From an uncultured Coprococcus sp. (GTDB lineage Bacteria > Bacillota > Clostridia > Lachnospirales > Lachnospiraceae), in NCBI GenBank assembly GCA_964488185.1, contig CAZATW010000001.1, forward strand, positions 19,582 through 83,581: a stretch of DNA of 64,000 bases, read 5' to 3'. Shown here in pieces: positions 8,894 to 10,628 of the stretch. Every line of letters begins with the position of its first letter. Position 1 is the first letter of the stretch. The notes below the pieces were generated by a model, which was not told the origin of the DNA, searched no databases, and saw only the letters and a list, made by a program, of their open reading frames with translations. Both the position numbers and the translations under genes were made by a program.

Positions 8894-9703
8894 TTATGCT
8901 CTCTTTCTGTACTCTATACGCAGCTTGTCTGAAATAAGTGCAATAAATTCTGAATTCGTAGGCTTTCCTTTACCTGCATTGACCGTATAGCCAAACATAT
9001 CATTAATTACATCAATCTGTCCCCTGCTCCATGCCACTTCAATCGCATGCCTGATGGCACGTTCTACACTTGATGAAGTTGTTTTATATTTCTTTGCAAT
9101 GGTCGGATACAACAGCTTTGTTATATAATTCAACATATTTGCATCATTTACTGCCATTATAATACCTTCTCTGATATACTGATAGCCCTTGATATTGGCA
9201 GGTATTCCGATGTCTCTGATAATATCCGTTACATCACTTTCAATATTATCCGTTGTTCTCAATCCTGATTTATTCGGAATACATACAAGCTCATCAGAAG
9301 CCTCCATATAAAGCTCTTTTTTACGCTTAAAAATCTGCTTTACTCTTGCAACAAGAGAAATCGGATTATACGGCTTCAAGATATAGTAGGTTGCTCCGAG
9401 CTCAAATGCACATCTTATCAGCCGTTGGGAGCCTACAGAGGTTACAACAATAAAAGTAGTATCTGATAACTCTTCATCTGCACCTATTGTTTCCATAACC
9501 GCAAGTCCGTCTATAATAGGCAGACAGATATCAAGTAATACAATATCCGGTTTATACTTTCTGATAGATTCTATGGCAGCTTCACCATCACTTACCTTAT
9601 CCATTATGTTCAGCTCTTCTTTCGTCATATTTGCCATAAGCTGACTGGCAATTAACTCACATTCACTATCGGCAATTATTATGTTCATCCCGTTATTACT
9701 CAT
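8894..9703 (-). CDS. spo0A: Spo0A paralog 2 (near-canonical receiver plus Spo0A DNA-binding domain)
   Basis: Receiver 'IIIADS', 'DIVLLD', 'VTSVG', 'YILKPY'. Spo0A C-domain '[15 protein letters not shown]...[28 protein letters not shown]...[16 protein letters not shown]'. Confidence 0.9.
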
Positions 9704-9763
9704 GATTATTCCCCATTTCGTTTCTTTCTATGTTTTTTTGCACCATTCGAATAATGTATTTAA

Positions 9764-9792
9764 ATAATATTCGACAGAATTACATTTGTCAA
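9764..9792 (-). promoter_or_regulatory. Sigma-A promoter of spo0A-2 with a perfect 0A box in the spacer
   Basis: TTGACA (9792-9787), 17 nt, TATTAT (9769-9764). TGTCGAA at 9776-9770. Confidence 0.7.
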
Positions 9793-9795
9793 GTA

Positions 9796-9829
9796 TTTTT
9801 GATATCGTTTTTGATATTGTTTTTGATAT
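9796..9829. repeat. Three direct repeats of TTTTTGATAT with a 12-bp period
   Basis: Copies at 9796-9805, 9808-9817 and 9820-9829, immediately upstream of the -35. Confidence 0.8.
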
Positions 9830-9833
9830 CTAT

Positions 9834-10628
9834 TTATGCACTCTTCATCTTGTTATCCAATCTTATTTTGTCTGCAATCAGAGCAATAAACTCAGAATTT
9901 GTTGGTTTTCCCTTTCCGGCATTTACCGTATACCCAAACAACTCATTTATTGTATCCATTCTGCCTCTGCCCCACGCTACCTCTATAGCATGTCTGATTG
10001 CCCTCTCTACTCTTGAGGAGGTTGTATTATATGTCTCTGCTATGGTTGGATATAATTGTTTTGTAATGGAGTTAAGTATGTCCATATCATTGACTGCTAT
10101 AACAATAGCACTTCTTAAGTATTGATAGCCTTTTATATGTGCAGGCACACCTATCTCGTGAATAATACTTGTTACCGTTCCCTCAAGCTCTGTATTGTCT
10201 CCGTCATTTTCTGCTAATTCAAGATAATTATCATTTTTCCTGCCTCTACAGGTTTCATCAATAATATCCTTAAACTTTTTCTCTTCATATGGCGTGTCCA
10301 TTATTCGGAATATAACCCTGTTATCAATACAGTCATACAGAAACTTTAAATATTCCACATGATTTTTGGATGCGCACATAATAAATCTTACATTCTTAAG
10401 ATTTTTGTACTTTACAACCTCATCTACTATTTCCAGTACGTCTTTTTCCGGCAGAACCTCGTCCATAATCACGATATCAGGTGATTTTTTTATGATTGAT
10501 TCCATTCCAGCCTGTCCTCCTGCACAAACGCCAAGTAATTCATAAGCGGGAGTATTCTCAATGATATTTTCTAACTGCTCTATTTCTCTTTTGTCACGCT
10601 TCACTATCAATATCTTTACATGATTCAT
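9834..10628 (-). CDS. spo0A: Spo0A paralog 1 (syntenic copy after spoIVB; atypical receiver, intact DNA-binding domain)
   Basis: C-domain '[17 protein letters not shown]...[31 protein letters not shown]...[16 protein letters not shown]'. Receiver reads 'ILIVKR', 'DIVIMD', 'MCASK', 'IMDTPY'. Start moved to MNHVK (10628), which has an AAGGAG RBS. Confidence 0.9.

Follow-up and report, generated by a model that had tools for sequence, protein, structure and literature searches.

The window analyzed here, a 64,000-nucleotide stretch of DNA from an uncultured Coprococcus species, carries two full-length spo0A genes in tandem on its minus strand, the strand on which the genes and elements of the locus given by coordinates below are also read. 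The upstream gene, copy A (Spo0A-1; 9834..10628), encodes a 264-amino acid protein in which a pseudo-receiver is joined to a canonical Spo0A DNA-binding domain, and the downstream gene, copy B (Spo0A-2; 8894..9703), encodes a diverged paralogue of 269 amino acids. Copy A lies directly downstream of spoIVB (10851..11918), the gene that marks the ancestral spo0A locus, which was identified by its Peptidase_S55 domain (246 bits) and by a TIGR02860 score of 306.8 against a cut-off of 305.25. The gene order in the window is argR (13729-14187), recN (12020-13747), spoIVB, copy A, copy B, two AstE/AspA-family genes and a purL-type gene. This argR-recN-spoIVB-spo0A synteny is confirmed, is not a chance pattern, and provides the location downstream of spoIVB that is expected of spo0A. 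Both the tandem arrangement and the ancestral position of copy A had been proposed in a first-pass annotation of the window, made from the letters alone, and both hold. Among related loci, which were drawn from one genome per species, L083 shows the same gene order, and in L084 four genes separate the pair from spoIVB, which lies ~4.6 kb upstream. Among public genomes, the nearest is a Coprococcus metagenome-assembled genome (MAG) from a water deer, at 97% protein identity.

Both open reading frames (ORFs) pass the family cut-offs, with Pfam Spo0A_C scores of 154 bits for copy A and 148 bits for copy B (cut-off 25) and scores of 239 and 273 bits, respectively, for the NCBIfam Spo0A equivalog TIGR02875 (cut-off 200), so that automatic annotation would name both proteins “Spo0A”. 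Their Spo0A_C domains match the structures 1fc3 and 1lq1 at E ~1e-45 to 1e-49 (6e-49 for copy A), and VERAIRH and KPTNSEFIA are read in both copies, in agreement with the conserved VERAIR core and KPTNSEFIA reported from the first reading. The receivers score differently with PF00072, at 67.4 bits for copy B and 26.7 bits (E 6e-6) for copy A, the latter under the 30.2 cut-off. The ATG start codon of copy A at 10628 is preceded by a GGAG ribosome-binding site; an alternative GTG start at 10700, which appears in the ORF list and would give a longer copy A, overlaps a conserved promoter. Elsewhere in the window, spoIIIAA to spoIIIAG were recognized by their family models and are adjoined by a likely spoIIIAH that has no family match, and together with spoIVB these genes indicate that the organism keeps core sporulation genes. 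No HisKA/HATPase histidine kinase was found among the window ORFs scanned, which were a part of the ORFs only.

The pseudo-receiver of copy A spans residues 1-128 (10245..10628) and is followed by the Spo0A_C DNA-binding and activation domain (9864..10175), which contains the recognition helix SRVERAIRH (9990-10016). At the end of β1, K10 and R11 (10596..10601) replace the acidic DD pair, and A86 (10371..10373) replaces the conserved Thr/Ser after β4. The phospho-site Asp is kept as D56 (10461..10463) at the end of β3, where it sits within a DEV motif in an invariant column of the orthologue alignment. In β5 and the loop that follows, R108 to P113 (10290..10307, in the context FRIMDTP), the canonical K-P is absent. 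These columns were located with a B. subtilis Spo0A sequence as a ruler (Thr 86, Lys 108), which served solely that end. The KR pocket, the retained Asp, the Ala in place of Thr and the Thr-Pro in place of Lys-Pro were all noted in the first-pass annotation, and T112-P113 is indeed present, but the register of the Lys position itself is ambiguous. The sequence at β5 and beyond reads F107 R108 I109 M110 D111 T112 P113, and the structural model puts β5 at 107-110, followed by D111 T112 P113; in copy A orthologues the residue preceding the Pro varies (L, Q, I, T), and R108 within β5 and PY[DE] are conserved. The canonical K-P is missing from copy A whatever the register.

An AlphaFold2 model of copy A shows a (βα)5 receiver with predicted local distance difference test (pLDDT) values of 85-95 over residues 1-130, in which K10 and R11 directly follow β1, D56 is at the end of β3 and A86 comes after β4. 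With Foldseek, the N-terminal half matched the Spo0A receiver structure 5wq0 with a template modeling (TM) score of 0.83-0.86 at 19-20% identity, in addition to the receivers of DesR and CheY, and the C-terminal half matched Spo0A-C structures with TM scores of 0.89-0.95. Four of the five conserved active-site residues are gone (the set reads KR, D, A, with no K-P), and neither copy in the window carries the full phospho-acceptor set of Spo0A (DD, D, T/S, K). As the receiver fold is present without these active-site residues, copy A is a pseudo-receiver protein by the definition of PMC12632262. It does not belong with the aspartate-less receivers (ALR), since D56 is present and is invariant in the copy A clade; an Asn at the phospho-site of an upstream copy was seen only in L121 and L122, two MAGs of Clostridiaceae/Lachnospiraceae.

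In receiver domains the Thr and Lys bind phosphoryl oxygens and the DD pair holds Mg2+, and pseudo-receivers commonly act without phosphorylation (PMC12632262). Lacking DD, Thr and Lys, the receiver of copy A very probably does not undergo normal phosphorylation, and copy A is presumably not controlled by Asp phosphorylation. It could be argued that copy A is still phosphorylated at Asp56 by some non-canonical chemistry and is still the actual master regulator, to which copy B would be accessory, as Asp56 and the neighboring Pro50 are invariant across the copy A alignment and the protein retains both the ancestral locus and the ancestral recognition helix. We consider this highly improbable, because the two acidic residues that bind the metal have been replaced, as have the Thr and the Lys, and such residues bind the metal and two phosphoryl oxygens (PMC12632262).

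The loss of the pocket is not accompanied by relaxed selection, which the first reading had named as a check on the degenerate copy. Between the window and its closest relative, a comparison in which the synonymous rate is unsaturated (dS 0.42), the ratio of nonsynonymous to synonymous rates (dN/dS) is 0.052 for the receiver of copy A and 0.038 for that of copy B, with values near 0 for both C-terminal domains. Copy A is conserved over dozens of species-level genomes, and its C-terminal domain is 76.6% identical to that of a single-copy Lachnospiraceae Spo0A, the same value as for the canonical upstream copies of Anaerobutyricum and Anaerostipes. Its receiver is 19% identical to the same single-copy protein, versus 46-47% for those canonical upstream copies. 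By these comparisons, only the input domain of copy A appears to have changed, by remodeling and not by decay. Conservation scored over 37 copy A clusters at <90% identity was highest in the former DD loop and the start of α1, V-K-[HR]-D-K-R-E-x-E-Q-L (mean 0.84), with further conserved segments at P-D-V-V-I-x-D-E-V, F-I-L-C-[SGA]-S-K-x-H and R-x-L-[DE]-x-P-Y-[DE]. That copy A is a decaying duplicate heading for loss was rejected as extremely unlikely: its receiver does fall under the Pfam threshold, but dN/dS is 0.05, the frame is intact in all ~50 distinct loci, the replacement motifs are conserved and the fold is predicted with confidence. An exhaustive search with the pseudo-receiver alone against 1.8 billion representatives returned 21 cluster representatives at E up to 1e-10, mostly fragments from this clade, and further matches were generic receivers only. 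The domain is thus narrow and lineage-specific, with no sign of fusion to other output domains.

The same conservation bears on whether copy A might serve as a brake or decoy, that is, whether a copy A locked in an inhibited state occupies 0A boxes without activating, or titrates a kinase or partner of copy B, and so raises the threshold for sporulation. The unphosphorylated Spo0A receiver inhibits its own effector domain (PMC3485338), decoy models for pseudo-receivers are discussed in PMC12632262, and the best-conserved parts of the pseudo-receiver include helix α1 (0.76), where kinases usually dock. Nevertheless, the parts of the C-terminal domain related to activation are as conserved as in canonical Spo0A, which is unexpected in a pure blocker. 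In addition, CheY with a basic residue at its D13 position takes up an active state independent of phosphorylation, and we regard a brake as distinctly unlikely.

Copy B departs from canonical Spo0A in two places. Its receiver (9323..9688) carries D12 S13 (9665-9670), D58 (9530-9532), T88 (9440-9442) and K110-P111 (9371-9376), and in its recognition helix region, SSVERAIRH (9047..9073), S212 (9068-9070) replaces the Arg of the SRVERAIRH found in copy A and in every single-copy Spo0A. All of these residues, including the Ser at one pocket position and the Ser before VER, agree with the first reading. The missing second pocket Asp corresponds to the CheY Mg2+ ligand D13. Among the 120 best database matches to copy B, D, T/S and K-P are retained, the second pocket position varies freely (S, G, N, A, H, V, T, K, Q), and Ser precedes VER in all 120, making it a fixed signature of the clade of downstream copies. 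Where the MAFFT register slips in the D-x loop of downstream copies (ADSE read as DE, for example), the motifs were read straight from the sequences. The clade-wide Arg-to-Ser change adjoining the recognition helix probably shifts DNA affinity or site preference, although no literature text was found on what the Arg before VER contacts; PMC3485338 indicates the residues that touch DNA in a figure only.

Copy B had been described as phosphorylatable. With its phospho-site Asp, Thr and Lys (D58, T88 and K110), copy B is the likelier member of the pair to receive kinase input. That it is phosphorylatable was an assumption, however: one of five active-site residues is missing, so that copy B is formally a pseudo-receiver too by the definition of PMC12632262, and the clade-wide Ser marks it as a diverged paralogue and not simply as a normal Spo0A. 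In a separate observation, many apparently single Spo0A proteins from outside the Lachnospiraceae, in Oscillospiraceae/Clostridia MAGs (L109-L120 and similar), read A-D-S or A-D-N in the pocket and keep SRVERAIRH, so that the loss of the second acidic residue is common in the Spo0A family; losing it may leave Spo0A function intact.

The tandem pair is widespread and is not special to the window genome. It was found in Coprococcus species, Anaerobutyricum hallii, several Anaerostipes species, Eubacterium MAGs, Wujia, Clostridium sp. CAG:632 and many unnamed Lachnospiraceae, always as an R-type gene followed by an S-type gene, and the orthologue cluster P0012, from abundant human-gut Coprococcus, occurs in 2,693 indexed blocks of the assembly collection. 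In a neighbor-joining tree, the downstream copies (copy 2) formed one clade with 100% bootstrap and the upstream copies (copy 1) another with 60%, and the two subtrees showed mirrored topologies, which is consistent with one duplication after which the two genes were inherited vertically together. Anaerostipes, Anaerobutyricum and their relatives, Eubacterium relatives among them, have a fully canonical copy 1 (DD, D, T, K). Degenerate forms of copy 1, whose replacement residues are conserved, are confined to a monophyletic set of lineages with N-H (CAG:632 type), K-H (Wujia type) or K-[RH]-D-K-R-E (Coprococcus) in the pocket. By this distribution, the tandem duplication is placed before the degeneration of copy 1.

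A census of loci by regular expression, which is approximate (L021, for example, was misfiled as “basic”), gave ~50 distinct loci with a basic-pocket copy 1 beside an S-type copy 2 and ~25 with a canonical copy 1 beside an S-type copy 2. Just one basic-pocket copy 1 lacked a partner, and its contig ends 189 nt away. A basic-pocket copy 1 is therefore partnered wherever this can be tested, and the pocket has been lost only where copy 2 is present. As copy A is conserved and always stands beside a copy with the phospho-site Asp, Thr/Ser and Lys, the two-protein switch that the first-pass annotation had suggested is a reasonable reading of the locus.

Several arrangements outside the standard pair were also seen. 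In L121 and L122, the upstream copy has an Asn phospho-site with an N-H pocket, and the downstream copy has a K-A pocket with no K-P. Five loci of Anaerostipes hadrus, A. amylophilus and relatives (L206, L214, L221, L224, L226) have three spo0A genes in a row that read canonical ADDN, then VDGD, then ADSY, and the “three paralogues” of A. hadrus in the literature are this tandem array; the middle copy of L226 apparently has Asn at the phospho-site. L108 (Lachnospiraceae MAG ABMPRH_281_1) holds an independent, recent tandem duplication of a canonical spo0A, with nearly identical copies of 311-313 amino acids that both have an ED pocket and SRVERAIRH, and tandem duplication is accordingly an event that recurs at the spo0A locus.

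Upstream of each copy in the window are sequence elements that could tie the two genes to one another. Copy B has a σA-type promoter (9764..9792; TTGACA, 17 nt, TATTAT) that matches the consensus at 11/12 positions and is conserved in Coprococcus species, with a perfect 0A box, TGTCGAA (9770..9776), in its spacer touching the -10 hexamer. This box is present in the window, L001, L002, L004 and L005 and has one mismatch in L003. The interval between the two genes is 116-172 nt in Coprococcus, versus merely 18-85 nt, holding only a ribosome-binding site, in genera with a canonical copy 1, which makes the separate copy B promoter a feature of the lineages with a degenerate copy 1. With the box inside the promoter spacer, Spo0A proteins probably repress or tune copy B directly.

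The promoter-like site of copy A (10662..10690; TTCCCA, 17 nt, TATAAT) lies within an invariant block. Upstream of it, an 18-nt element, TTGTCGCAACTTGCGAAG (10700..10717), contains two 0A-box-like motifs, and this element and the following block ending in TATAAT are invariant in six species with saturated synonymous sites. Further upstream is a 0A-like box, AGTCGAA (10751..10757), of which GTCGAAA is conserved in five of the six species; L088 reads TGTCGAA. These 0A-like elements upstream of copy A suggest autoregulation, and GTGGAAT just upstream of the TATAAT appears to resemble the σH -10 element (B. subtilis consensus). No terminator-like structure was found between copies A and B, and a terminator-like hairpin with a U-run follows copy B (8795..8826). 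A search of the window with Rfam gave nothing at gathering score.

Two further sequence features were noted around copy B. Just upstream of its -35 hexamer (9796-9830), GATATCAAAAA(C) occurs three times in phase, about every 12 nt (GATATCAAAAAC AATATCAAAAAC GATATCAAAAAT), and two or three of these copies are retained in other close Coprococcus species; the array could be an UP-element-like set of A-tracts or a site for another regulator. Between copy B and the first AstE/AspA-like gene, a near-consensus promoter (8842-8871; TTGACG, 18 nt, TATAAT) leads within ~20 nt into the hairpin and U-run at 8795-8826, taken here as the spo0A terminator; a promoter placed in this way could also form part of a leader or attenuator for the downstream genes.

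The constant partnership of the copies and the lack of a terminator between them would suit an obligate heterodimer acting as a coincidence detector, in which copy A cannot activate alone and pairs through its conserved α4-β5-α5 face with (phosphorylated) copy B, the A:B dimer on paired 0A boxes controlling a gene set of its own, as WhiI does with BldM. On tandem 0A boxes, it is the receiver by which Spo0A normally dimerizes (PMC3485338); the pseudo-receiver clade shows conservation of α4 (H-x-x-Y-L-x-F) and of the β5 region, and there are precedents in WhiI/BldM (PMC4125116) and in a heterodimer signal for CmrR-CmrT (PMC12548384). On the other hand, copy B's own promoter in Coprococcus uncouples the expression levels of the two proteins, and their differing recognition helices would need asymmetric sites. 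We would put an obligate heterodimer forward only as a tentative and less probable alternative.

The reading that we favor, and consider moderately probable, is that copy A is a phosphorylation-independent regulator at 0A boxes, that copy B is a signal receiver with altered DNA contacts, and that the two regulate one another through their promoters. The best explanation for the locus is that the role of the master regulator has been split between two spo0A paralogues, which form an old pair passed on vertically. The observed basis of this explanation is the anatomy of the genes, their residues and fold, purifying selection, phylogeny, co-occurrence and the conserved cis-elements. From these we infer that copy A acts unphosphorylated, that copy B is phosphorylated, that the proteins bind DNA at these boxes, and the direction of regulation. 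In Spo0A the unphosphorylated receiver inhibits the effector domain and phosphorylation promotes dimerization, and no phosphorylation is needed for the effector domain on its own to bind 0A boxes (PMC3485338). Copy A would keep the ancestral DNA-binding and transcription-activation domain unchanged, with its acidic pair, Thr and Lys rebuilt into a strongly conserved, largely basic set of motifs around Asp56, and would act on 0A boxes as an atypical response regulator whose activity is set by the amount of protein and by whatever the remodeled receiver binds. Copy B would be the member that takes kinase input, its DNA contacts altered by the Arg-to-Ser change. The copy A promoter would serve both genes, which no terminator separates, and Spo0A proteins would probably repress or tune copy B through the 0A box in its promoter spacer.

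Several points weigh against this reading. The second pocket Asp is missing from copy B, and whether copy B is itself phosphorylated is hence uncertain; conversely, the invariance of Asp56 in copy A makes non-canonical phosphorylation or another modification possible. In L121 and L122 the pair exists with both copies badly degenerate. The 0A boxes of the window number 7 versus 4.7 expected, which is not significant, and their significance would come from conserved position alone. With respect to evolution, the tree was built by neighbor-joining only, dS is saturated for most species pairs, and copies were counted within spo0A loci only. Evidence of expression is a weak hint: a run search with the window yielded one weak rat-gut run, whose RNA label is a guess, in which contigs ~90-95% identical cover both spo0A genes at similar depth and the neighboring genes are uncovered, perhaps being too diverged for the 90% identity filter. 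The C. ammoniilyticus locus, used as a query in turn, yielded no RNA run.

A more far-reaching reading would be that Coprococcus launches sporulation with a Spo0A pair that has no canonical phospho-acceptor pocket at all. The former Mg2+/phosphoryl pocket of the copy at the ancestral locus would then be a conserved basic site, K-[RH]-D-K-R facing Asp56-Glu57, that either mimics the activated state or binds an anionic ligand or a phosphorylated partner, and the switch would be thrown by transcriptional control, ligand sensing or heterodimer coincidence and not by direct phosphotransfer from kinase to Spo0A. We regard this as speculative and rather improbable.

Full-text literature searches found no description of a pseudo-receiver Spo0A, in keeping with the suggestion in the first-pass annotation that the arrangement is uncharacterized; multiple spo0A paralogues in Clostridiales have, however, already been counted. 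Galperin et al. 2022 (bioRxiv 10.1101/2022.02.25.481979) recorded two spo0A paralogues in 10 of 118 genomes (Clostridiales) and three in Anaerostipes hadrus with no further analysis, a second Spo0A is mentioned for C. thermocellum (PMC4890492), and Faecalibacterium duncaniae has three Spo0A homologues (PMC13020158). These cases share with the window the presence of extra spo0A genes beside the primary one, but the reports only count or mention them, and describe no pseudo-receiver, no pairing of R-type and S-type genes and no loss of the pocket from the ancestral copy. Compared with canonical Spo0A of B. subtilis and C. difficile (TIGR02875, PF08769), the Coprococcus pair has the same two-domain architecture, the same locus after spoIVB, a near-unchanged Spo0A_C and 0A-like boxes at its own promoters; it differs in the absence of DD, T and K from copy A, in the absence of the second Asp and the Ser for Arg in copy B, and in having two genes instead of one.

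Like the atypical regulators ChxR, HP1043 and GlnR (PMC12632262), copy A keeps the receiver fold and an intact output domain, has lost at least one of the five active-site residues, and arose inside an ordinary response-regulator family. Unlike them, it has Spo0A_C as its output, which we did not find reported, retains the phospho-site Asp, and has a conserved basic motif in the pocket. WhiI and BldM of Streptomyces (PMC4125116) are likewise two regulators of one family, one of them atypical, in a developmental (sporulation) program, but they belong to the NarL/FixJ-type family of another phylum and their genes are not adjacent; their heterodimer is a coincidence detector, whereas a heterodimer of the Spo0A pair is hypothetical. 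CmrR and CmrT of Clostridioides difficile (PMC12548384), also from a member of the Clostridia, are a typical and a pseudo-receiver regulator of the same family in one operon that form homodimers and possibly a heterodimer and show autoregulation at the operon promoter. They differ from the Spo0A pair in belonging to the OmpR family and in having a kinase gene in their operon, whereas no kinase gene was found among the window ORFs scanned and each Spo0A copy departs to some extent from a typical regulator.

In total, an atypical response regulator has arisen inside the Spo0A family as one half of a conserved pair of paralogues. The case for its evolution is strong, whereas the mechanism is one that we infer throughout. 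In textbooks, Spo0A is the master regulator of endospore formation and is controlled by phosphorylation, and finding it serves as a marker of sporulation ability in gut Firmicutes; the Lachnospiraceae are without the Bacillus phosphorelay. In one large clade of this family, which includes very common butyrate producers of the human and animal gut, spo0A has been duplicated, and Coprococcus and its sister lineages have lost the pocket of the ancestral copy under strong selection. Judged from these sequences, the sporulation switch in Coprococcus, a common gut genus, probably departs in its wiring from the textbook model. Both genes receive the name Spo0A from annotation pipelines, which do not distinguish them, and spo0A gene counts consequently overestimate how well sporulation control in these bacteria is understood. 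According to a review citing Browne et al., electron microscopy showed spores in C. eutactus grown in culture (PMC11406416), and if this holds, sporulation proceeds in a genus whose ancestral-locus Spo0A has no pocket. The natural series of a canonical copy 1, a degenerate copy 1 and both copies degenerate offers a means to study how response regulators escape control by phosphorylation.

Finally, a number of observations were made on the surroundings of the pair. Downstream of copy B, the two AstE/AspA-family genes (succinylglutamate desuccinylase/aspartoacylase-like; 6831-8700) are adjacent and overlap, and they keep this position in distant Coprococcus species (L081, L083), even where spoIVB is not the upstream neighbor. 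In the abundant human-gut Coprococcus of L081 and L082, the spo0A pair is separated from spoIVB and has an Fe-alcohol dehydrogenase gene and a radical-SAM gene as its upstream neighbors. Farther along the window, 30169-49916 (minus strand) holds a type IV pilus / type II secretion-like cluster with two T2SSE ATPases, a T2SSF platform protein, several prepilin-type genes and a 2,085-amino acid ORF at 30169-36426. The first 2,900 nt of the window (1-2900) have a GC content of 28-31%, versus ~40-46% elsewhere, and encode an 894-amino acid PgfM-like glycosyltransferase; this segment may be horizontally acquired surface-glycan DNA.

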